64,000 nt of DNA from Bacteroidetes bacterium HGW-Bacteroidetes-5 (GCA_002842515.1 PHDC01000002.1:190744-254743); one strand, 5' to 3'. Shown: positions 4,059-18,602, counted from the stretch's first letter. The notes: generated by a model from the letters alone, not told the origin. Program-made: numbers and translations.

Positions 4059-4164
4059 AAAGTTATTTGCCGGTGCTTTTACGGTTATTTCCAGCTCATA
4101 GCTGCCGTCTCTGTATTGGGCCGGCAGCCGTGCTAGAATAACCTAAGCACCGGAATAACTTTCC
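4059..4164. repeat. Family-D imperfect palindromic element, copy 1
   Basis: AAAGTTATTTGCCGGTGCT...AGCACCGGAATAACTTT; near-identical copy at 4363-4472. Confidence 0.85.
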
Positions 4165-4177
4165 GGTTAGAAATGGA

Positions 4178-4349
4178 ACCTTGGCAAGGGTTGCGGACCC
4201 AATCCCGCAACGCGGTAAACACAACTGTGAAACGGACCATATGATCCCTGGGAGTTTTTTACTCTGTGCTGTTTTTCTTATGTTTAACATTTTTGGAAAA
4301 TCAAAAAAAGTAAACTCACCAAAGCTAAAATGCAAATATTCAAATCAAT
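4178..4349 (+). repeat. 172-bp direct repeat, copy 1
   Basis: Near-identical to 6151-6322; starts with a family-A variant ACCTTGGCAAGGGTTG. Confidence 0.9.
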
Positions 4350-4362
4350 GCAAATAGGAATA

Positions 4363-4472
4363 GGAAAGTTATTTGCCGGTGCTTTTTACGGTTATTTCCA
4401 GCTCATGGCTGCCTGGCTCTATGTTTGGCCGGCAGCCGCGCTAGAATAACCTAAGCACCGGAATAACTTTCC
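4363..4472. repeat. Family-D imperfect palindromic element, copy 2
   Basis: GGAAAGTTATTTGCCGGTGCT...AGCACCGGAATAACTTTCC. Confidence 0.85.
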
Positions 4473-8187: not shown

Positions 8188-8230
8188 CCTTGCCAAGCAT
8201 CGTGGGGCTTTATTAATAAACAGCGCGTTA
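8185..8230 (+). repeat. Family-A element filling the whole gap between two convergent stop codons
   Basis: TAACCTTGCCAAGCATCGTGGGGC..CAGCGCGTTA; terminal TAA/TTA are the stops of 7081-8187 and 8228-9502. Confidence 0.85.
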
Positions 8231-9502
8231 GCTTTTTAACAACTTTGTAAGTTCCCACGCTTGAACGTGGCGTATTCCTTGATTAGATGGCATATTTACA
8301 TCGTCAAGTGATACGACAAATTTTTCGTAATTGTCTTGAATAGCCTCCAAAGAGGCGTATTCACGTCGCGCGGTTTGCTCATCTGCAAGAATATAGGCTA
8401 CTTGCAAATATATAACTCTGTCGCCTTTTTTTGCTACAAAATCGACCTCTTTATCCCGCATAGCACCCACATAAACCTCGTATCCGGTTCGGTGAAGCTC
8501 CAAATAGACGATATTCTCTAATTTGTATCCGAGGCCATAACCAAACCCGGGATAGAGATAATTCTTAAACGAAAGGTCGTTGATGTAATATTTGCAGATG
8601 CCGGAGATTGTCTCTTTGCCTCGGATGTCATAACGCTCGACCCGATGAACAAGAAACGCATCCTCTATATATCCGATGTAATTGGCAACTGTGTCGTAGG
8701 TTGTTTTGCGCCCGTTACTTTTGAAATAGTTAGCAATATTGTTTATTGACATTAAAGTTGAGGCATTGTTGACCTGATATATGAATATCTCTTCCAATAA
8801 CTTTGGGTCCTTGATGCTGTGTCGCTGAATTATATCTCTAAGCAGAACTGTATCCTTTATGGCAGATATATAGTTGCGTTTTGTCTCGTCGTTCCCAAGC
8901 TTAAAAAGTTCCGGCAATGCTCCGCTCTCCATATATTCCAGATAACTTTGTTTCCCGGGATCCTTTTTAGTTATGCCTGTATATTCAGAAAAGCTGAACG
9001 GGAGTATCTCAAAATTTACATATCGACCGGAAAGCAGTGTAGCAAGCTCTCCGGATAACATTTTTGAATTGGACCCGCTTATAAATATCTCATAACTATC
9101 TACATAATCTTGTGAATAGGAGTTTACGAATTGTTCCCACTCCCGGATGTTTTGTATTTCATCAATGAACAACCAAATTTTCCCGGTGGGTTTGAGTCTC
9201 TCTTTATATAGTTTCACCAAAGTGTCCAGCTCTTTATAGTCACTTATAAAGTCGAAATCTGTAAACTCTTTATTAATATAGAGGATATTATGCAGATTCA
9301 CTCCCTCTTCAATGAGCCGATGTGCAATTTGACGTAAAATATAACTTTTACCTACACGGCGTTGCCCGACAAGTACTTTAATCAACCTATTGCCGGTCGA
9401 ATCAAATATCTTATCTGTATAATCCTTACGAGGAAACCCAAGTTCAGGAACATTGCCATTCCAGAAATTATACTTTTCTAAAGCTGCGAATTTATCTTCC
9501 AT
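8228..9502 (-). CDS. AAA_14/DUF4143 ATP-binding protein
   Basis: GQRRVGKS, FIDEIQ, ISGSNS, KEVDFVA (PD-(D/E)xK-like C-terminus). Confidence 0.9.
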   Translation of the reverse strand: MEDKFAALEKYNFWNGNVPELGFPRKDYTDKIFDSTGNRLIKVLVGQRRVGKSYILRQIAHRLIEEGVNLHNILYINKEFTDFDFISDYKELDTLVKLYKERLKPTGKIWLFIDEIQNIREWEQFVNSYSQDYVDSYEIFISGSNSKMLSGELATLLSGRYVNFEILPFSFSEYTGITKKDPGKQSYLEYMESGALPELFKLGNDETKRNYISAIKDTVLLRDIIQRHSIKDPKLLEEIFIYQVNNASTLMSINNIANYFKSNGRKTTYDTVANYIGYIEDAFLVHRVERYDIRGKETISGICKYYINDLSFKNYLYPGFGYGLGYKLENIVYLELHRTGYEVYVGAMRDKEVDFVAKKGDRVIYLQVAYILADEQTARREYASLEAIQDNYEKFVVSLDDVNMPSNQGIRHVQAWELTKLLKS

Positions 9503-9583: not shown

Positions 9584-9690
9584 ATCTCAGAGCTGTAGTG
9601 CCAATTTGCTTAATATCACGGAATTAATATAAATACCGTATTTGATGTAAGTATTTTAAAATCTGATGTTTGGCACTACAGCTCTGAGAT
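9584..9690. repeat. Family-C inverted-repeat element (21-bp arms)
   Basis: ATCTCAGAGCTGTAGTGCCAA...TTGGCACTACAGCTCTGAGAT; relative at 27289-27394. Confidence 0.85.
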
Positions 9691-10564
9691 GAATGCTGTC
9701 ACCCAGGCAACTCCGGTCAGTGGCGTCGCCTACACCCTTGCCGGCCTCACAGGAACAACAAAAGAGGCGGTAGTAACTCTTACATCTGCGGCCACACTTA
9801 CCGCCACCAACGCCGACACTAAGGTATATATGGTTATCAACCCGGGTACACCCACCGGTAGCTGCCTTGTAGGGGTATCAACAGATGGCACCACCTGGAA
9901 ATATCTCGAAAAAGCAGTCCCTGTGGGCGGCTTTAAGCGGGGTGTCAAATATGTGGTTACAATAGACGCTGCTACGGCAACTCTTGAGAATGTAGTAGTC
10001 GGGGGTGCCGGTAAGATATGGATGGACAGAAACTTAGGAGCCACGCGGGTTGCTACAAGCAGCACCGATGCAGAAGCTTACGGAGATCTATACCAATGGG
10101 GAAGACTCTCCGATGGGCATCAGATAAGAACATCCGGAACCACAACAACATTAGCAGACTCCGATACTCCGGGACATAATAATTTTATAAGATCCTCTTC
10201 TCTACCTATCGATTGGCGCGACCCGCAAAACGACAACTTATGGCAAGGTGTGAGCGGTACCAACAACCCGTGCCCAAGCGGTTTTAGAGTTCCTACAGAA
10301 ACTGAACTAAATGATGAGCGACTAAAGTGAAGCACCAATAATCCAGCAGGGGCTTTTGACTCGCCACTTAAACTCCCCGTAGCAGGCATGCGCAACTACT
10401 CCTCTGGTTCGCTCGACTATGTTAGTTACTAAGGCATGTACTGGAGTAGTACCGTAAGCGGCTCCAACTCACGCTACCTGTTCTTCCAGAATAACTACTT
10501 CAATGCCGAAATGCAATTTCACCTCCGTGCGAATGGCTTTTCTGTTCGCTGCGTTAAGGATTAA
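9689..10564 (+). pseudogene. 5'-truncated fimbrillin-type gene with C-terminal FISUMP (Fib_succ_major)-like domain and two in-frame stops
   Basis: WMDRNLGA, GDLYQWGR, NPCPSGFRVPT; reading continues past TGA 10328-10330 and a later TAA to YWSS..GFSVRCVKD*. Confidence 0.8.
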
Positions 10565-10690
10565 CTTTGCCAGTGTTTGATGAAACTATCTGACATACAA
10601 ATATCTACAAAACCCAGTTTTCCAATATTGGAAAACTGGGTTTTGTAACCACAAGAACAACAAACACATACATCAAACACTGGCAAAGTT
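10563..10690. mobile_element. Family-B1 MITE-like element, 128 bp, 20-bp perfect TIR and central perfect palindrome
   Basis: AACTTTGCCAGTGTTTGATG...CATCAAACACTGGCAAAGTT; palindrome 10607-10646; second 128-bp copy at 38621-38748. Mobility is inferred. Confidence 0.65.
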
Positions 10691-10812: not shown

Positions 10813-10953
10813 ATGGAACTCAACTTTGAGAACGAACGCACCCCAAAAGTGTATTCACCTCCGGTAATTGAGGTGATAAATATTAAGCTTGAGAAGGGAT
10901 TTGCAGCATCTTCCGATAATTGGAATGATGGTGGTGAATGGCCCGATGAATAG
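10813..10953 (+). CDS. 46-aa peptide, putative RiPP-like precursor with YxxP leader motif
   Basis: Below the ORF-track cutoff. MELNFENERTPKVYSPPVIEVINIKLEKGFAASSDNWNDGGEWPDE*; AT-rich start context, 30 bp before the fimbrillin ATG. Confidence 0.7.
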   Translation: MELNFENERTPKVYSPPVIEVINIKLEKGFAASSDNWNDGGEWPDE

Positions 10954-10983
10954 TTGCTTTGCAGATTTTTAAATTTAAAGAAA

Positions 10984-13071
10984 ATGTTTAAAATTTCAAA
11001 AAGGAGTCTGCAATTGATAATTATCATTGTCACTCCGTTTGCTTGCGCAAAAGAGACGCAAAACAGCCCCGAAGATCCTTTGAAAAATACAATTAAAATT
11101 ATTGGTGCAGATGCATCTGCCGGTAGCGAGACTAAAACCACGCTTGATGGCTTTGTTACCTCCTGGGTTGCAGGAGATCAGGCGGGCATATTCTCTCCAA
11201 ATGCACGTCAAAGTGCCGGCGGTTCTGTTGGGGTAGCCAATCGTGTTTACACTGCGCAATCTAGTGCAACCGTATCTGATTTTACCGGTGAAATTTACTG
11301 GGGCACAGGTGCTCACAGTTTTTATGCCTACTATCCTCACGCAGCAGGTGCGTTTACGGCCGGGGTTGTCCCGGTTTCGGTACCTGCCAATCAGACTCAG
11401 GTTGGCACAAGCAGTACTCATCTATCTGCCTACGATATGATGGTAGCCACACCTGTTACAAACTTGGACCCAGGAACAGAAGATAATCCGGCTGTCGTCA
11501 ACTTGAGATTCAACCACCTTTTTGCACTGCTGGATTTTAGAATTGCCTCTATATCTGATAAAACAATCAAAGAGGTAGAACTGGTAGCTCCAGGAGGAAC
11601 CAATATTTATATCTCCGGCACTGTAGATATTACCCAGGCGACTCCCGCTTCCGGAGTCTCGTATAATATTGCAGATCCTACCGGGGGCAATAGTGTAAAA
11701 GTAACAATTACAGGAGGTCTGGACCCAACAGACGACTACAATACAACCCCGGGTGTCTTTATGATGGTTAATCCCGGCAACTATACCGGGCAAACTTTTA
11801 CAATCAACATAAAGACCAATGACGATGTAGTTTACACTCAAACCAGGGCGGGTACAGAGTTTAAACGGGGAACCCGCTATCTTGTAAAGTTCAACGATGA
11901 GCTGGGTGCCTCTCCTGTGGGTCTGGACGGAGTGGCAAACTGCTACATAATCAACCCAAGAGATCTTAAAACAACTTTTACTTTCCCAATAACTCAGAGT
12001 AATAACTACTGGTCGGTTGCACAATATGGAAATTTGCCAGCTAATGTGATTGATGCAGATGATAAATGGGTTGCTTCTGTTATTTGGCAGGAGAAGAGCA
12101 AACTTGTGACTCTGGTAGACGGAGGCATGGGTACCGGTTCCGGAGGTCAGGTAAAGGTTTTGGTAGATCCCGGTAAGTTTGGTAACGTGCTTGTTGGAAT
12201 AAAACGCGATACAGATGGTAACGGGACACCGGACGAAGGTGCCTCATATCTATGGAGCTGGCATCTTTGGATAACCAACTACAATCCTAATGACGCTGTT
12301 ACCAAGCAAGCCGGCGTTTACGCCTATCCTGTAACCGGAGGTAATGTTCACAGATACAGAGACAACGCCTATAATGTTTGGGAGACTGATTTTACAAACA
12401 GTTTTATTATGGACAGATATCTTGGTGCTGAGAGTGCAGATGTTCCATCTTATGAAGTTGACAGAGGTTACTATGGAGTACTCCACTATCAATTCGGCAG
12501 AAAGGATCCTTTTCCGGCTATTGTAAGTTTATATGATGGCTCCAATAGTTTAATACCCTCACCAATATCTTTCCTCCCCGGTCCAGTTACAAAAAATGTA
12601 GCTAACCAGAACCCAACTCAGTTTATATATGGACCTTCCAACTGGTGGAATGATGCCAGAATAGATAATACTCTTTGGCAGGGTTTCGAAGCATCAGCTT
12701 CTATAAAACCAATTCTGGACCCTTGTCCTGCCGGTTGGAGAGTGGCACAAACCAATTTACTTTGGAATGATTTTGATAATGTCAAACTTTGGATTGACAA
12801 TATGGGAACCTCATTTCATATGTGGAACTATATTACAGCCGGTGCAAAATATCCGGCTTATGGTGCTAGAGATTATTTAACTGGGAATCTCTACAGCGTC
12901 ACTTGGCAAGCAACAGTCTGGTCTGCATACTCTTTCTATAATGCTGGGAGTGTAGGTTACGGTGGAAGAAATCTTGTAACAAATGTAAGTGGAAGTCCTA
13001 GTGCCAGCACTGTGTCATTTATGAATGGTAGCCAACGCAGTAGTGGCCACTCTATAAGATGCATTAAATAA
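10984..13071 (+). CDS. Fimbrillin-family (type V pilin-like) lipoprotein with C-terminal FISUMP-like domain
   Basis: Lipoprotein signal (..VTPFAC), WVAGDQAGIF, YAYYP, YDMMVA, YLWSWHLWIT, MDRYLGA, YQFGRKDPF, DPCPAGWRV, GHSIRCIK. Confidence 0.8.
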   Translation: MFKISKRSLQLIIIIVTPFACAKETQNSPEDPLKNTIKIIGADASAGSETKTTLDGFVTSWVAGDQAGIFSPNARQSAGGSVGVANRVYTAQSSATVSDFTGEIYWGTGAHSFYAYYPHAAGAFTAGVVPVSVPANQTQVGTSSTHLSAYDMMVATPVTNLDPGTEDNPAVVNLRFNHLFALLDFRIASISDKTIKEVELVAPGGTNIYISGTVDITQATPASGVSYNIADPTGGNSVKVTITGGLDPTDDYNTTPGVFMMVNPGNYTGQTFTINIKTNDDVVYTQTRAGTEFKRGTRYLVKFNDELGASPVGLDGVANCYIINPRDLKTTFTFPITQSNNYWSVAQYGNLPANVIDADDKWVASVIWQEKSKLVTLVDGGMGTGSGGQVKVLVDPGKFGNVLVGIKRDTDGNGTPDEGASYLWSWHLWITNYNPNDAVTKQAGVYAYPVTGGNVHRYRDNAYNVWETDFTNSFIMDRYLGAESADVPSYEVDRGYYGVLHYQFGRKDPFPAIVSLYDGSNSLIPSPISFLPGPVTKNVANQNPTQFIYGPSNWWNDARIDNTLWQGFEASASIKPILDPCPAGWRVAQTNLLWNDFDNVKLWIDNMGTSFHMWNYITAGAKYPAYGARDYLTGNLYSVTWQATVWSAYSFYNAGSVGYGGRNLVTNVSGSPSASTVSFMNGSQRSSGHSIRCIK

Positions 13072-13086
13072 CAATGAGGGTTTACA

Positions 13087-13356
13087 ATGAGGATTTTACA
13101 GAATTGCAAGCTGCGTGATATTGCGGGTGAGAAGATGCTCATTGTAAAGAGCAATGGCAAGCTGGATTTCACAAAGGTGGTTTTAATGAACAGCAGTGCC
13201 CAGCTTCTTTACAATGAGCTTAAAGATAAGAGTTTTACATCTGCAGATGCTGCTGCGTTGCTTGTGAACAGCTACGGTATAGATGCTGCAGATGCAGTGC
13301 GGGACTCCTCAAATTGGCTTGAGTCTATGACCAAGGCCGGGCTGATTACTGAGTGA
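13087..13356 (+). CDS. PqqD-family RiPP recognition element (RRE)
   Basis: 89 aa; LRDIAGE..LMNSSAQLLYNEL..LLVNSYGI..D..NWLESMTKAGLI. Confidence 0.85.
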   Translation: MRILQNCKLRDIAGEKMLIVKSNGKLDFTKVVLMNSSAQLLYNELKDKSFTSADAAALLVNSYGIDAADAVRDSSNWLESMTKAGLITE

Positions 13357-13421
13357 TAACTGATTATGGCCTGGCAGATTAGCGATTATGGCCGGGCGGA
13401 TTACCGATTAAGGGATAATAT

Positions 13422-14534
13422 ATGGAGTTTACAATTACAGAGAGGAGATTACTCTATCTGGTTCGCGGGGCACTGAATGGTGTTGTCGAGGGGGGTGAGG
13501 GCGATCTTTTCTCTTCAATGTCGCACAGTGAGTGGCGCAGGCTGCTGGAAGCCGCTGCGAAGCAGGGGGTTACAGCCGTTGCTGCAGATGGTATGTGCAA
13601 GGGGGTTCGGGAGTTATTGCCAAAGGATATTGCCGTGCGATGGTTTTTGAGTGTAGATACCATTGAGAAGCGTTACCAAAGGCAGATGGAGGTTCTTGGG
13701 GAGTTGAGAGCTCTTTTTGCCAAATCACAGATTGAGGTTTTGGTGCTAAAGGGTGCCACACTCGCTGCCCTATACCCTATTAGTGAACACAGGGAGTGTG
13801 GCGATATAGATATCTTCCTGTATGAGAATTATGAGAAGGGTAATCTGGTTGTTGATAGAATGGGAATTACGGTTGACAAAAAAGGGTTTAAACACTCCAA
13901 ATTTTTCTTTAAAGGGATAGATATAGAGAATCACAAGTCGCTCCTCAATGTGGCTAATAATAGATACGACAGAGAGATAGAGAGACATCTGCGCAGGATG
14001 TTGGAAGATGGTAAGATTGAAGATTTTCATCTGCTTTTTAACATCCGCCACACCATTGTCCATTTTTTAAGTTCCGGAGTTGTTTTAAGACACTTTACAG
14101 ATCTTTATCTGCTCCTTAAACACTACTGCAGCAACCAAGAGTGTGCGGGCAGGCTGCCAGGGATTTTTGAGATTCTTTCTAAGCAGGGTCAGTTAAGGCT
14201 TTTCACCGCTTTTGTACATTTGATTAATGAGTGTTTTGACGAGACAGGGGTAGAAAAACATCTGCAAAGCTTTTACAAAGAGTGTTCAATAGAGCCTGTG
14301 GGTGAAGATGTTGCCCGCAAGATTTACGGGGATACATTTGTTAAGATCGCTAATAGGAGAGATATCTCCGATTTGTTGCAGATGAATGTTTTGCAGAGGA
14401 AGGTTGTGGGGGCTAAAAATATGATGGAGTTAAAGTGGAAATACGATCTTATTGAGAGGGGCTATTTTGCCCGTGAGTTTCTAAAGCGCATTGGATATGC
14501 ATTTAAACTATACAACCCTAAAGTCTCTCTTTAG
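13422..14534 (+). CDS. Nucleotidyltransferase family protein (NTP_transf_5 type)
   Basis: [24 protein letters not shown] motifs. Confidence 0.85.
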
Positions 14535-16143
14535 AGAGGCCAACTCTTTTTGGCCGGGCAAAGCAAAATGGGCCGTAGCCCTGCTTGCTGTTGTGGGCTC
14601 CCTGCTGGAGTTGGCCGGAGTTGCCGTTATGTTTAGGCTGCTGCTCTATGTTATAGAATCGGGTAGTTATGCTATACTTGTAGCTGCGGGCTCTCTACTT
14701 TTCTTTGCACTCAAGAACCTGGCCCTTCATAAAATACAGCTTTTTAGGAGCCGCAAGCTTCAGGAGCTATACGGCGCACACTCTGTAAGGCTCTACGAAC
14801 ACTATTTTTGTAAGGGGTTCGCTTTTATTAAAGAGCAGGGAGCCTCTGCGCTCTCGCACAATGTAAACTCTGTTTGCTACACCTTTGTTTTTGGGTATGT
14901 AAATGCAATTGTCTCTCTTCTTGGAGATTATCTGCTTATCCTGCTCATTTTTGGTGTGTTGGTTTGGGTAAATCCGATTGCTGCTATTGCAGAGATTGTG
15001 ATTTTTGTACCTATTGTCATTTTCTTTGCCGGGTTTACCTCAGAGAGGTTGCGCAGATCCGGAAAGGAGGATAATATTGCCAAGAGAAAGCAGTGGAAGA
15101 TAACTGCAGAGACCTTTCGTGGGTACCCGGATATATTAGTCGGCGGTGCTTATAGCGAGTTTTGCAGAACTTTTAAGAGTGGCATTGAGCAGATCTCCGG
15201 AAACAGATTGTATGCAGAGAGGTTGAAGAGCATCTCCGGCCGCTCTGTAGAGATGGGTATTGTGGCAGTAATTGCCGGGCTTATTGTTGTATCTGCAGTT
15301 GCCTACCCGGGAAAGCCTCTCTCCGACTTTCTGATTCCGGTTGCAGCAATTTTTACTGCCGCAACTCTTAAGTTATTACCTGCTTTTCGCTCGGTTCTAT
15401 CTAACATTAATACACTAAAAAACACCTCATTCGCTCTGGATGTGGTTCGTACCGGCATTGAGGAGCCTGCTTTAATAGAGGGTAAGCTTGAGTGTTTGGC
15501 ATTTGAATCTCTGGAGTTTAAGGGTGTAGATTTCTCTTTTGGAGATGGCAGGGAGGTGTTAAAGGGGTTTTCGATGAAGGTGGGCAAGGGCGAGCGTGTG
15601 GGCATCCGAGGACTCTCGGGGTCGGGCAAGAGTACCCTTATGCTTCTTATCCTTGGAATCTACAAACCTCAGGGTGGAGAGATTCTTCTAAACGGGGTTG
15701 GGCTGGAGTTGTACAGTCTCAAAAGTTGGCACAAGCTCACCGGGTATGTCTCTCAGGAGACCTATCTTCTGGATGCCACGCTCGCCCGCAATATCACCTT
15801 TGAGACAGATCTTATGACACCCCGGGTGCTAGAGGTTATAAAGATGGTATCGCTTGGAGATTTTGTCTCTAGGGTTGATTGGGCAGATAGCTGGAGGCCG
15901 GGTGAAGGGGGGCTGATGCTCTCCGGTGGTGAAAAACAGCGTCTGGCAATCGCACGGGCTCTCTACAAAAAAGCCGATCTGTTGCTGCTGGATGAGGCAA
16001 CATCTGCACTCGACAACGAAACCGAGCTAAAGATAATCGAGACCTTAACAGGACTAAAAAAGACAATAATAATAGTCTCTCACAGAGAGAAGATGCTTGA
16101 GATATGCAACACGATAACAGAGGTAGTGCCCATTACCACATAG
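14497..16143 (+). CDS. ABC exporter, fused TMD-NBD
   Basis: [28 protein letters not shown]; N-terminal transmembrane segments. Confidence 0.9.
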
Positions 16144-17081
16144 GTGGCATTCATATAGCTTTAGATTACCCCCACTCCCTTCCAGCCGGCTCCAGGCTGG
16201 CCGGTTTCTCCATATTCAAGCACAATCCAGCCCCTAATTCCACCCAAAACTCCACCCCAAACTCCACCCCGAATTCCATTCCAAATTCCACCCCGAATTC
16301 CATCCCAAATTCAATCCCGGACATCAATATAGAATTTCGCACAACCGACCAGCTACCCGGCGGCGGGCCCGCCGGCGGGCCGGGCACTGCGCCCGACGAC
16401 TCTCCCCTAACCTGTATGGAGGACGGCACTTACTTTATGCGGTTGAAGAACAACGGCTTGGCAGAGGGTGAAATTAGAGCCAAATTATCCGCTAAAGAGA
16501 ACAAAGTTATTTGCGACTTGGTGGGAGATATCTCTCCAGGCACTCTGGCTTTTGCACTTTGGTTAATATATGCATTTTACGGACTGGGAAAAATGAAGGT
16601 TCCTGTACACTCATCTGCAGTGGTTTGCAATAAATCTGCAATCCTCTTTCTCGGAGAGTCCGGCACCGGTAAAAGTACCCAGGTTTCTCTCTGGTTAAGG
16701 CACATTGCACAAACCAAAGCGCTCAACGACGATAGCCCCATTGTTTGCATTGATGCAGATGGAAAAGTCTATGCTCACGGCTCTCCCTGGAGCGGTAAAG
16801 GGCGGGTCTATCTTAACGAGAGTTACCCTGTGGCAGCATTTGTCCGTCTAGAACAGAGCAGCAAAAATCACATCCAAAGGTTGAACAAACTGGAGGCCTT
16901 TGTGGCTCTGTTCCCCTCTTTTCCTCCCCAGTTAACCGGGTTTGACCATTTTGAGGAGATTGCCTGCAATCTGATATCTTCATTTATAAGCGCCGTACCT
17001 GTCTACAAACTAAGCTGCCGCCCATTTGCAGATTCCGCAATCTTAACCCACTCCACAATTCTTAATAGCAGCCTGGTTTAA
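16104..17081 (+). CDS. HPr-kinase-related/PEPCK-like P-loop kinase
   Basis: [33 protein letters not shown]; contains a 12-bp VNTR at 16236-16319. Confidence 0.75.
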
Positions 17082-17094
17082 GATATATTATTTG

Positions 17095-17200
17095 AGAGTT
17101 TTAAGTGAGAGTATATGAGAGATTAAAGGAGAGTTTTAAGTGAGAGTTTTAAGTGAGAGTTTTAAGCGAGAGTTTTAAGTGAGAGTTTTAAGTGAGAAAA
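17095..17200 (+). repeat. 13-bp tandem repeat (GAGAGTTTTAAGT)
   Basis: About six copies plus degenerate units; continues as 12-bp units into the next ORF. Confidence 0.9.
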
Positions 17201-17201
17201 T

Positions 17202-17699
17202 ATGAGAGGGTTTATGAGAAAGCTTGTGAGAAAATTTGGAAGAAAACTTGTGAGAGTACTTGTTGGCAAGAGGTTGCCCAAAGGTTGCAAGGAGATAGAG
17301 AACTCCGTTGCATTCAAAATTGTTGAGGAGAGTCTTAATGAGGGTGTGCCGGTGAAGATGACCGTAAGAGGGGATAGTATGTTTCCAACTCTTGCCGGAG
17401 GTAAAGATCAAGTCACTCTTCACCCATTTACCGAGAAAGAGTCTCTCTCTGTTGGCGATGTGGTACTATTCAGATACAAAAAAGGGTATCTATTGCACAG
17501 AGTTATTGAGATACCTAATAGTGAATCAAAAATTCCCGGGGCAGACTCCCCCGTATATCTCAAAGGAGACGCACTCAACACAATCGAGATGGCAACCATA
17601 AGGGACATCCTGGCCATTGCCCACTTTAAACAACACTCCCCCACCTCCCTTTTTTGGAAAAGAACTGCCAGTGTTTTGAGAAAAGTGCTAATAATCTGA
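17202..17699 (+). CDS. S24/S26-family serine peptidase
   Basis: VRGDSMFPTL, GDVVLF, LLHRVI, LKGD; start uncertain (repeat-derived N-terminus); C-terminus read from a B2 element. Confidence 0.75.
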   Translation: MRGFMRKLVRKFGRKLVRVLVGKRLPKGCKEIENSVAFKIVEESLNEGVPVKMTVRGDSMFPTLAGGKDQVTLHPFTEKESLSVGDVVLFRYKKGYLLHRVIEIPNSESKIPGADSPVYLKGDALNTIEMATIRDILAIAHFKQHSPTSLFWKRTASVLRKVLII

Positions 17700-17932: not shown

Positions 17933-18226
17933 ATGAGGATAATAACTTTCCGGAGGATTATGGAGTTTTCTTTAGTTTATGCAGATGCCGATATTGCTCT
18001 GCGTGAATGGTATAAAAAAACACAAAAGGCCAATTGGAGTTGCTATGCAGATATTAAAAAGAGTTTTAACAGTGCAGATGCCGTTGGAAATAGTCGTTTT
18101 GTGTTTAATATCAAGGGCAATAGTTATCGTCTTATAGCGATTGTTTTATTTAAAATGAAAACGGTCTATATCAGGTCTATCTGCACACATAGTGATTACG
18201 ATAAGATTGATGCAGCAAATATTTAA
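17933..18226 (+). CDS. higB: HigB-family toxin
   Basis: LREWYK..ANW..DIKKSFNSAD..RFVFNIKGNSYRLIA..YIRSICTHSDYDK. Confidence 0.9.
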   Translation: MRIITFRRIMEFSLVYADADIALREWYKKTQKANWSCYADIKKSFNSADAVGNSRFVFNIKGNSYRLIAIVLFKMKTVYIRSICTHSDYDKIDAANI

Positions 18227-18236
18227 TTTTTTAGAG

Positions 18237-18602
18237 ATGGCAACAATCAAAAACATAGAGCAATACGAGAAAACCTGTGAGCGGGTTGAGGAGCTTTTAG
18301 CGGTGGTAGACAATGAAACACCGGAAAGTGACAAGAATTATATTGAGCTGGAGCTTTTATCGGGTCTGGTTTCGGAGTATGAAGATGTTTATCTAACCGT
18401 CACATCGCCAACTCTTCCGGAGGTGCTTCGTTTGAGGATGGCAGAAATGGGCTTGAATCAGAGGGGTTTAGCAGGGTTACTTAATGTGAGTCCATCCAGA
18501 GTGAGCGAATATCTCAATGGCACTTGTGAACCAACACTAAAGGTGGCTCGGGAAATGGGTAAAAAGCTCGCAATTGACCCACATATTCTTCTGGGGATAT
18601 AA
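18237..18602 (+). CDS. higA: HigA-family antitoxin (XRE HTH)
   Basis: LELLSGLVSEYE..LRLRMAEMGLNQRGLAGLLNVSPSRVSEYLNG. Confidence 0.9.
   Translation: MATIKNIEQYEKTCERVEELLAVVDNETPESDKNYIELELLSGLVSEYEDVYLTVTSPTLPEVLRLRMAEMGLNQRGLAGLLNVSPSRVSEYLNGTCEPTLKVAREMGKKLAIDPHILLGI

Follow-up and report, generated by a model that had tools for sequence, protein, structure and literature searches.

The closest described systems are the linear polyphosphorylated peptide (LPP) clusters (lppA-K-B-S-D-N; Paenibacillus alginolyticus DSM5050), which were described in May 2026 and called restricted to Bacillota (Popov et al., Nat Commun 2026, PMC13381572). LppB binds the YxxP motif of the leader, and it has been shown experimentally that LppK polyphosphorylates Ser3 of the core and that LppS and LppB together remove the leader (PMC13381572). 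The precursors have the leader consensus YxxPxVLxHQxIxFETxxS and a variable C-terminus, and their function was left unknown by the describers (PMC13381572). Supplementary Data 2 of that work defines the LPP core by five models: PF05402 (PqqD), PF14907 (NTP_transf_5), TIGR02228, TIGR02203 (the transporter model) and TIGR04249, the last of which is labelled 'HprK kinase' together with TIGR04352 and TIGR04355 (PMC13381572). Only two Bacteroidota peptidases are in the LPP data set, both fused to ABC pumps and with no kinase recorded (PMC13381572).

We analysed a 64,000-nt window of Bacteroidetes bacterium HGW-Bacteroidetes-5 (GCA_002842515.1 PHDC01000002.1:190744-254743) and studied its part 10813-17699. 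The initial annotation had reported seven ORFs here, and all seven were recovered in place, closely spaced on the plus strand:

10605-10648, strand., strong hairpin with a 20-bp stem, upstream of the precursor gene
10813-10953, +, putative 46-aa precursor peptide gene (ORF MELNFENERTPKVYSPPVIEVINIKLEKGFAASSDNWNDGGEWPDE; family homologues)
10954/10984-13071, +, fimbrillin-like surface lipoprotein (PF13149, 80 bits)
13087-13356, +, PqqD-type RiPP recognition element (RRE), LppB-like (PF05402, 30 bits, above cut-off)
13422-14534, +, nucleotidyltransferase-fold enzyme, LppN-like (PF14907, 120 bits against a cut-off of 31)
14491-16143, +, MsbA-like ABC exporter, LppD-like (TIGR02203, 204 bits; PF00005)
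16104-17081, +, HprK/PEPCK-type P-loop kinase-like protein of the ScmC family, LppK-like (TIGR04249, E 2e-8)
17202-17699, +, soluble archaeal/SipW-type S26 peptidase, LppS-like candidate leader peptidase (TIGR02228, E 2e-7)

The lipoprotein stop is separated from the PqqD start by 15 nt. The ABC gene overlaps its neighbours on both sides, the nucleotidyltransferase gene by 44 nt and the kinase gene by 40 nt. The hairpin reads as a terminator on the minus strand and as the left boundary of the unit. By analogy with the LPP clusters, we consider it quite likely that 10813-17699 forms one operon-like unit for an LPP-type RiPP pathway in a Bacteroidales bacterium.

The six-part logic is shared with LPP clusters, and the five models that define them are the best matches of the five enzymes. 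Thus, the proposal of an undescribed system did not survive for the enzyme set, which had been reported as LPP, in Bacillota only (PMC13381572). This likeness suggests that the cluster is very probably a Bacteroidales version of the LPP pathway.

The peptidase gave TIGR02228 as its top NCBIfam match (31.2 bits, under the curated cut-off of 51.85). It shares the GxSMxP Ser box, the HR box with the general-base His, and the GD box with SipW/archaeal-type signal peptidase I, but it has no transmembrane anchor. From the alignment, S59, H99 and E129 are the candidate catalytic residues. Among 65 homologues, G57, S59, M60, P62, H99, R100 and G122 were invariant, and D123 and E129 were retained in 97-98% (E129: 97%). 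BLASTP against LppS gave 28% identity (E 1e-6) and aligned S59/H99 with LppS S29/H68; E129 lies six residues past the GD box, in the same placing as LppS D93. As in the LPP clusters, an archaeal-type S26 peptidase with a putative Ser/His/acidic triad and no membrane anchor is therefore co-localised with an RRE. Because of the analogy with LppS, we expect its substrate to be a leader presented by the RRE in the cytoplasm, and not Sec signal peptides.

The discrete PqqD-like protein aligned with LppB at 95.8% probability (hhalign); the RRE fold is common to many RiPP classes, so its presence is necessary and not specific. The AF2 model of the PqqD homologue from locus L171 (pLDDT ~95) found its best PDB matches in the lasso B1 proteins TbiB1/TfuB1 with bound leader peptides (TM 0.74-0.79). 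In the natural read-through peptide-PqqD fusion of the same locus, AF2 did not dock the peptide, which was modelled as a helix with a pLDDT of 60-69. The nucleotidyltransferase-fold enzyme carries a GDIDI motif, and the exporter, with TIGR02203 as its top match, has permease and ATPase fused and no C39 peptidase domain. The candidate HprK-like kinase is recognised by its sub-cut-off TIGR04249 match and by weak matches to the PEPCK/HprK-superfamily P-loop. Its motifs FLGxSGTGKS (Walker A), LNDD and PWSGK are invariant among homologues, and a PNS(T/I) repeat at 16226-16312 forms a lineage-specific insertion. A ScmC-model kinase partnered with a PqqD homologue is also found in the SynChlorMet cassette (ScmC, TIGR04249). 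In contrast to that cassette, the window has no radical SAM/SPASM enzymes, and its kinase scores far under the curated equivalog cut-off (33.8 against 125 bits).

The phosphorylated lasso clusters of paeninodin and pseudomycoidin also share a discrete B1-type RRE for a [Y/W]xxP leader, an HprK-like Ser kinase, a PF14907 enzyme and an ABC exporter. This raised the question of whether the locus is a decayed, non-functional cluster of that type that has lost its cyclase and B2 protease. The lasso B1 proteins are the nearest structural relatives of the PqqD protein, and phosphorylated lasso clusters use kinase, PF14907 and pump genes for tailoring (PMC13381572). However, the cyclase-free five-gene set is conserved, in shuffled order, in more than 500 species representatives, and the peptidase keeps its Ser and His invariant and its acidic residue nearly so. 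The peptide tail has, in our reading, no obvious ring-forming architecture. As initially annotated, neither an Asn-synthetase-like lasso cyclase nor a transglutaminase-type B2 protease was found among the ORFs of the cluster and its flanks, and the S26 peptidase stands in their place; both were also missing from 80 homologous loci, which were mapped by BLAST against the window's proteins. Across the genome, PF13471 gave one 21-bit match on another contig, below the cut-off, leaving no B2-type match above it. Decay of a lasso cluster is thus highly improbable. LPP clusters likewise need no macrolactam cyclase or B2 protease, and, unlike in the lasso systems, leader removal by an S26 serine peptidase and a linear product are predicted here.

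The 46-aa peptide has the leader Y14-x-x-P17-x-I-E-V...E27-K-G-F-A-x-S33, followed by an acidic, Trp-containing tail. Pfam and NCBIfam profile searches with it gave no match at E<=10, and database copies of the family carry only the name "hypothetical protein". The family motif Y-x-x-P-x-I-E-V-x-E-I-x-V-E-K-G-F-A-x-S, followed by a hypervariable acidic/Gly tail, was found in 60 distinct peptides across many Bacteroidales families. Five homologues with 78-87% identity occur in other metagenomes and differ from the window's peptide by one in-frame codon. In the DNA comparison with locus L006, identity is 87% over the ORF but only 45% over the segment 41-150 nt upstream. Because of these homologues, this conservation and the shared motif, we regard the ORF, on sequence grounds, as more than chance.

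The ORF could still be untranslated, its conserved DNA serving to regulate the lipoprotein gene and the cassette having its substrate elsewhere. The closest relative, L002, fits such a role, with an ORF 90% identical and upstream DNA 94.5% identical. Against it, what is conserved across families is the amino-acid sequence, encoded by very different DNA, and frame, start and stop are preserved with a similar length (33-60 aa). Indels within the ORF are in frame, whereas 1-nt indels appear just past the stop, and no Pfam or NCBIfam family is required to explain the ORF. We therefore judge an untranslated element very unlikely. RNA contigs from four wastewater metatranscriptomes start ~140 nt upstream of the peptide ORF of a Bacteroides intestinalis-type homologue and cross it into the lipoprotein gene.

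Comparing the precursor with LppA, we find an N-terminal YxxPx[V/I] leader, a conserved Ser about 18-19 residues past the Tyr and a hypervariable tail in both. The leader then diverges, with E-V-x-E-I-x-V-E-K-G-F-A-x-S here against V-L-x-H-Q-x-I-x-F-E-T-x-x-S in LPP. hhalign gave a probability of 3.6%, with only 12 columns aligned and the HQxIxFET part absent. From Tyr to Ser there are 19 residues in this family against 18 in LppA, and the Phe-to-Ser distance is 3 against 5. Since the peptides are unalignable outside the generic YxxPx[IV] block and differ in spacing, the LppA cleavage site is not transferable. By sequence, the precursor has the same architecture as LppA and belongs to a different precursor family. 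The cores also differ, those of this family being short (about 10-25 aa), acidic and often ending in W/F/Y, against 45-aa basic Gly/Asn/Pro-rich cores in LPP. Precursors here are multi-copy (1-12 per genome), dispersed and each placed with a pilin-like lipoprotein gene, in contrast to LPP precursors, which lie within capsule loci. The order of the cassette genes is shuffled, unlike in LPP clusters, and the PF14907 gene or PqqD is absent from some Bacteroidales cassettes. Some Bacteroides loci also hold a Wzz-like protein.

The initial annotation had called for a check of peptide-cassette co-occurrence and neighbourhood, and both point to a link. Among 201 genomes of the order, 7 had peptide and kinase, 1 the peptide only, 3 the kinase only and 190 neither (Fisher p = 4e-10). 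Peptides were present in seven of eight further cassette genomes, and three or four cassette genomes had no detected peptide. A peptide gene lies within about 10 kb in 17 of 80 cassette loci, and it adjoins the cassette in several families, distant ones included. It is directly ahead of the kinase gene in genome G158 and of the PqqD gene in L171, both without an intervening lipoprotein gene, and sits inside the cassette in L110. Most peptide copies are far from any cassette, and a genome's 1-12 scattered precursor genes, each with its pilin-like lipoprotein gene, appear to be served by one cassette.

The lipoprotein at 10984-13071 has a lipobox signal (MFKISKRSLQLIIIIVTPFAC; ...TPFAC), a type V pilin-like N-terminal half (Mfa_like_1) and a FISUMP-like C-terminal half. 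Using Foldseek, the AF2 model of the N-half matched Bacteroides 'cell adhesion' proteins and FimA/Mfa pilins (BACUNI_00621, BF1858, FimA, Mfa2-4), with E 2e-11 to 1e-5 for the Bacteroides adhesin-like proteins, FimA and Mfa3. In signal, domain and predicted fold it therefore resembles the type V pilins/fimbrillins of the FimA/Mfa (PF13149) lipoproteins of Bacteroidales; it differs from them in its large FISUMP-like C-half and in the RiPP-type precursor gene ahead of it. A long ORF follows the peptide gene in 47 of 57 copies at a median gap of 22 nt. In most cases this ORF encodes a lipoprotein whose N-domain is type V pilin-like, and 41 of the 47 have a lipobox. Thus, the pilin-like lipoprotein gene is the regular downstream partner of the precursor, wherever the copy sits in the genome, and the initial picture of a pathway simply built around a pilin gene gives way to a conserved pairing for nearly every precursor. 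We found no such pairing of a RiPP-type precursor gene with a pilin-like lipoprotein gene in the literature searched.

The same pairing raised the question of whether the small ORF serves the lipoprotein alone, as an upstream ORF with a regulatory role or as a peptide that donates a strand to the pilin-like domain or chaperones it, with the cassette an occasional neighbour acting on another substrate. Besides the short gap, the lipoboxes and the distance of most copies from cassettes, this agrees with peptide-lipoprotein pairs that have no cassette within 10 kb (L006) or none in the genome (G194), with the amphipathic, beta-strand-like character of the conserved peptide part, and with an in-frame peptide-lipoprotein fusion in one MAG (L196). 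However, peptide and cassette co-occur very strongly across genomes, and G158 and L171 have the peptide directly ahead of the cassette without a lipoprotein gene. Both LppB and the structurally closest RREs bind the Y-x-x-P motif, which is invariant in the peptides. In an AF2 model of a read-through peptide-lipoprotein fusion, the peptide had a pLDDT of ~30, so no docking is predicted. The peptide also lacks a signal peptide, and it would therefore need a dedicated exporter to reach a surface lipoprotein. On balance, service to the lipoprotein alone is rather unlikely, and the 46-aa gene very probably encodes the substrate of the five adjoining enzymes.

The ORF is thus likely, given the LPP analogy, the co-occurrence and the adjacency, to encode the precursor of a linear RiPP made by a cyclase-free, RRE-dependent pathway. 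This part of the initial proposal was supported by comparison, while its novelty and the role it gave the pilin were not supported. We propose that the peptide would be translated and that its YSPPVIEV segment would be bound by the PqqD protein as an added beta-strand, as in the lpp analogy. The P-loop kinase would phosphorylate, probably repeatedly, the nearly invariant Ser/Thr of G-F-A-x-S (S33). The PqqD protein would present the leader end to the soluble Ser/His S26 peptidase, which would cleave within or just beside G-F-A-x-S. The PF14907 enzyme may attach a further group to the phosphate, and the MsbA-like pump would export a short acidic product (about ASSDNWNDGGEWPDE). The coupling of every precursor gene to a gene for a type V pilin-like lipoprotein makes it probable that product and lipoprotein act jointly at the cell surface. 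A surface role is also indicated by the capsule-locus link in Bacillota, taken with the lipoprotein link and the Wzz-like protein in Bacteroidales.

More tentatively, LPP-type peptides of Bacteroidales might be dedicated partners of type V pilin-like lipoproteins, the pairs being matured in trans by one cassette and the exported phospho-peptide, possibly further decorated, binding, capping, anchoring or otherwise modifying its cognate lipoprotein at the cell surface. Such a partnership, in which every lipoprotein gene would have its own precursor gene and a genome could hold as many as twelve pairs, is possible and somewhat doubtful. If true, it would offer a first way into the function of LPPs and add a new layer to surface-adhesin biology in gut Alistipes and Bacteroides. 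The LPP enzyme set is in any case widespread in Bacteroidales, beyond the restriction to Bacillota stated previously (PMC13381572), and the previously missing Bacteroidales substrates would be this small peptide family outside Pfam and NCBIfam. The role of LPPs becomes directly testable in genetically tractable gut anaerobes; the cassette carriers include the cultured human-gut species Alistipes putredinis and Bacteroides intestinalis.

The initial annotation placed seven co-oriented ORFs at 10813-17699, and we find them at the positions and in the order that it gave.

Genes of the cluster (co-oriented; best profile match)
10813-10953: 46-aa peptide; no profile match
10954-13071, probable start ATG 10984: lipoprotein with signal MFKISKRSLQLIIIIVTPFAC; PF13149 Mfa_like_1, 80 bits
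13087-13356: PqqD; PF05402, 30 bits
13422-14534: nucleotidyltransferase; PF14907 NTP_transf_5, 120 bits
14491-16143: ABC exporter; TIGR02203 MsbA-like, 204 bits
16104-17081: kinase-like protein; TIGR04249 ScmC, E 2e-8, 33.8 bits, under cut-off
17202-17699: S26-like peptidase; TIGR02228 archaeal-type signal peptidase I, E 2e-7, under cut-off

The genes abut or overlap, by 44 nt between the nucleotidyltransferase and the ABC exporter and by 40 nt between the exporter and the kinase-like gene. A hairpin with a 20-bp stem (10605-10648) lies at the end of the gene preceding the peptide ORF.

Searching Pfam and NCBIfam with ten diverse peptides, we obtained no match at E≤10. Comparison of homologues indicates that the small ORF represents a real, conserved gene family. 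Five 45-aa homologues with 78-87% identity were found in other metagenomes, all just upstream of an approximately 710-aa Mfa-like gene. Against the locus L006, the DNA of the ORF is 87% identical, while the stretch 41-150 nt upstream is 45% identical, and one in-frame codon is the sole length difference. Against the closest relative (L002), the ORF shows 90% nucleotide identity and the promoter-proximal upstream DNA a higher value, 94.5%; the changes are concentrated in the peptide tail, as would be expected of a diversifying core. Two 521-aa Mfa-like/FISUMP genes in the related contig L003 are preceded by peptides of a second subfamily, MDTKSTKDTALFKEVCSIGGPYEPPCIEVVEIYVEKGFANSTNDLEEEEW. Performing profile searches of whole genomes, we collected 60 distinct peptides spread over many families of Bacteroidales, with the consensus Y-x-x-P-x-[IVL]-E-[VI]-x-E-[VI]-x-V-E-K-G-F-A-x-S. 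The Y, the P, and one E are invariant family-wide and the G is nearly invariant; the consensus S is nearly invariant in a smaller alignment of 14 peptides. The tail is hypervariable, about 10-25 residues long and rich in Gly, Asp, Glu, and Pro, and its last residue is often W, F, or Y. Six weak matches in the genome G137 (L074, L080, L086, L089, L091, and L093) are of a different small-peptide type, M-K-x-Y-x-K-P-x-I-E-V-I ... RRR-x-S-x-W-D-E-Y-E, with no lipoprotein gene downstream. They may constitute another precursor subfamily; the cassette of that genome is kinase-S26-PqqD-ABC, without a PF14907 gene.

A single TAG (10951-10953) parts the peptide ORF from the lipoprotein frame in the window. 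Read-through of this codon as a biological event was rejected. The two ORFs lie in differing frames in homologues and 1-nt indels occur past the stop, and thus the peptide and the lipoprotein are separate genes. In an Odoribacter sp. MAG (L196), the two stand in one open frame (…QVEQGFALSPPKGTGSDMPWGN-MVFMIMLLLSSC…), either by loss of the stop codon or by an assembly error.

We checked whether the peptide travels with the enzymes in an even sample of 201 genomes from the order, counting peptides at E≤1e-3 and close kinase homologues at E<1e-20. The peptide was present in 7 genomes with a close kinase homologue and in 1 without; it was absent from 3 with such a homologue and from 190 without (Fisher p = 4e-10). 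It was found in 7 of 8 further cassette genomes and, with about 10 kb fetched per side, at 17 of 80 cassette loci. Homologous cassettes devoid of any such peptide had been named beforehand as a finding that would speak against the precursor; instead, peptides occur both at cassette loci and in cassette genomes. Genome G158 encodes the peptide MKKLYTSPEIEVVEVIEYGFAASEPLGRSKVSQSFEEEEF 38 nt ahead of a kinase-S26-PqqD-nucleotidyltransferase-ABC set, and no lipoprotein gene intervenes. At other loci the peptide directly precedes PqqD (L171), the cassette encloses a peptide-lipoprotein pair (L110), or four peptides surround one cassette (L099).

The initial annotation regarded the pathway as its best candidate for an undescribed system, which does not hold, since the enzyme set is described in the paper on linear polyphosphorylated peptides (LPPs) (Popov et al. 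2026, PMC13381572). LPPs were defined in Bacillota, to which they are said to be restricted; Bacteroidota entered that data set with only two peptidases, which are fused to ABC pumps, the kinase and precursor being unrecorded (PMC13381572). The core gene set comprises lppA (precursor), lppK (HprK-like kinase), lppB (RRE), lppS (SipW-like peptidase), lppD (MsbA-like pump), and lppN (NTP transferase). LppK adds one to four phosphates to core Ser3, and LppS, whose catalytic residues are S29, H68, and D93, cuts after T-1 only on a leader presented by LppB. In the heterologous host, LppN was silent (PMC13381572). The domain table of the same paper lists PqqD, NTP_transf_5, TIGR02228, TIGR02203, and TIGR04249/TIGR04352 (PMC13381572), the very models that best match the five enzymes of the window. 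The window peptidase is 28% identical to LppS (E 1e-6), aligned across the Ser and His boxes, and the window RRE matches LppB profiles with 95.8% probability.

The precursors differ. The window peptide and LppA have the YxxPx[VI] block alone in common (hhalign probability 3.6%). LppA reads YxxPxVLxHQxIxFET|xxS, followed by a long basic, Gly/Asn-rich core, whereas the window-type leader reads ...EVxEIxVEKGFAxS and its core is short and acidic. The Tyr-to-Ser spacing is similar, at 19 residues in the window precursor versus 18 in LppA. Because the position of the Phe differs, the LppA cleavage site is not transferable to the window precursor. In this cluster the LPP pathway takes a Bacteroidales form, with a precursor family of its own. 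Our searches of the literature on PF14907, ScmC, and Bacteroidales RiPP mining did not turn up this system. What is new here is the genetic coupling of LPP-type precursors to pilin-like lipoproteins.

Performing an alignment-based search of GTDB species representatives, we obtained more than 526 relatives of the kinase-like protein, nearly all from Bacteroidales; the carriers include Alistipes (among them A. putredinis DSM 17216), Bacteroides intestinalis, Mediterranea, Odoribacter, Muribaculaceae, and Prolixibacteraceae. In gene maps of the best 80 loci, the core is ABC-kinase-S26, joined usually by PqqD and often by the PF14907 gene, and the gene order is shuffled. All of 65 S26 homologues share the GxSMxP box, the HR box, and the GD-box G, and the GD-box D and an acidic residue six positions on are kept in 97-98%; the corresponding window residues are S59, H99, G122-D123, and E129. 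As judged from these residues, the pattern is archaeal/SipW-type, with His as the predicted base. No membrane anchor is visible in the S26 protein. The kinase-like proteins retain FLGxSGTGKS, LNDD, and PWSGK, and the kinase profile matched only PEPCK P-loops in the PDB. The AF2 model of a PqqD homologue (L171; pLDDT ~95) has as its best PDB neighbours two lasso B1 proteins, TbiB1 and TfuB1, in crystal structures that include their YxxP leaders (TM 0.74-0.79). LppB (9X8Z) was absent from the sequence profile search of the PDB and from the top 50 fold-search matches, and sequence searches of the PDB returned no match for the nucleotidyltransferase or the lipoprotein.

It is quite probable, in our estimate, that the 46-aa ORF is the substrate of the cassette and that the pathway works like that of the LPPs. 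The comparison lends support to the mechanism first proposed for this cluster, in which a linear peptide would be bound by the RRE, phosphorylated, cleaved, and exported. By analogy with LPPs, PqqD would bind the YSPPVIEV segment, and the kinase would then phosphorylate the near-invariant Ser/Thr of GFAxS (S33). The S26 enzyme would cleave within or beside GFAxS, the PF14907 enzyme might extend the phosphate, and the ABC pump would export the product. We also modelled the L171 peptide and PqqD, which share a frame, as a read-through fusion with four stops as Gly (AF2). The RRE was confident and the peptide came out as an undocked helix (pLDDT 60-69), in a model where the junk linker itself folded into strands and no alignment rows covered the peptide.

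The pathway had been thought to be wrapped around a pilin gene. However, the pilin-like gene is the regular partner of the precursor: 47 of 57 evaluable peptides are followed by an ORF of at least 200 aa that starts at -80 to +150 nt (median gap 22 nt). A lipobox is present in 41 of these 47 ORFs, and 28 are detectable homologues of the Mfa-like N-domain of the window protein. The C-terminal halves differ (FISUMP, FGE-sulfatase-like, BspA-type LRR, and others). In its AF2 model, the window lipoprotein resembles Bacteroides 'cell adhesion' proteins, FimA, and Mfa2-4. Between 1 and 12 pairs occur per genome, most of them a long way from the one cassette; G006 has 12, the congeneric G152 has 4, and A. 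putredinis has 4. This pairing suggests that the product may act together with the paired surface lipoproteins. A role of the peptide as donor strand or chaperone of the pilin-like domain was also considered. Modelling of the natural read-through fusion (TAG 10951-10953 as Gly, 752 aa, 40-row alignment) did not support it, the peptide having a pLDDT of ~30 (AF2).

Searching for the window's own sequence in RNA data, we found none; it occurs only in DNA runs, which come from groundwater and bioreactor metagenomes. In the case of the B. intestinalis-type homologue (L111), contigs from four wastewater metatranscriptomes start at about 4093-4111 or slightly downstream, where a TAnnTTTG-like box, GAAATTTG, lies at 4099-4106. 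These contigs cover the peptide ORF (4248-4367) and reach the 5′ part of the lipoprotein gene, leaving the upstream DNA uncovered. They are consistent with peptide-lipoprotein co-transcription, though such contigs may contain DNA.

In Bacteroides intestinalis (L111 7004-8104) and Mediterranea (L135 3988-5178), the lipoprotein gene is separated from the ABC-kinase-S26 genes by one for a Wzz/polysaccharide co-polymerase (PCP)-like membrane protein. This arrangement recalls the association of LPP clusters with capsule loci in Bacilli. A gene for an Rce1/CPBP-type intramembrane protease stands between two peptide-lipoprotein pairs in L002 (1548-2327) and L003 (5572-6351), the window's closest metagenomic relatives, and is not in the window. 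The window holds a 5′-truncated and frameshifted copy of the 521-aa Mfa-like/FISUMP lipoprotein gene (9689-10564), whose intact L003 counterparts each have their own upstream peptide gene; a minus-strand ATPase gene (8228-9502) replaces the 5′ part and any peptide gene of this copy. Elsewhere in the same genome, a second PF14907 gene (G000:C2:307491-308354, 100 bits) had no further cassette gene detected alongside by BLAST. A 6.4-kb contig labelled Faecalibacterium prausnitzii (L112) carries a PqqD-nucleotidyltransferase-ABC-kinase set 39% identical to Bacteroidales ones and is probably mis-binned.

Several tandem repeats mark the 3′ part of the cluster. In the kinase-like gene, a 12-nt repeat (16226-16312, 7.2 copies) encodes 29 residues of PNS(T/I) repeats, which are followed by a Gly/Pro-rich stretch; this insertion is absent from all nine other kinase homologues aligned. 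Two further repeats lie at 17093-17263. The kinase-S26 gap is filled by a 13-nt repeat (8.4 copies, TGAGAGTTTTAAG), and the 5′ end of the S26 ORF is itself a 12-nt repeat (4.1 copies) encoding KLVRKFGRKLVR, so the start of this ORF is only provisional. Directly 3′ of the cluster, a HigB-like/XRE-HTH toxin-antitoxin-like pair (17933-18602) is kept at the same position in L002, where Pfam assigns HigB_toxin and HTH_3.
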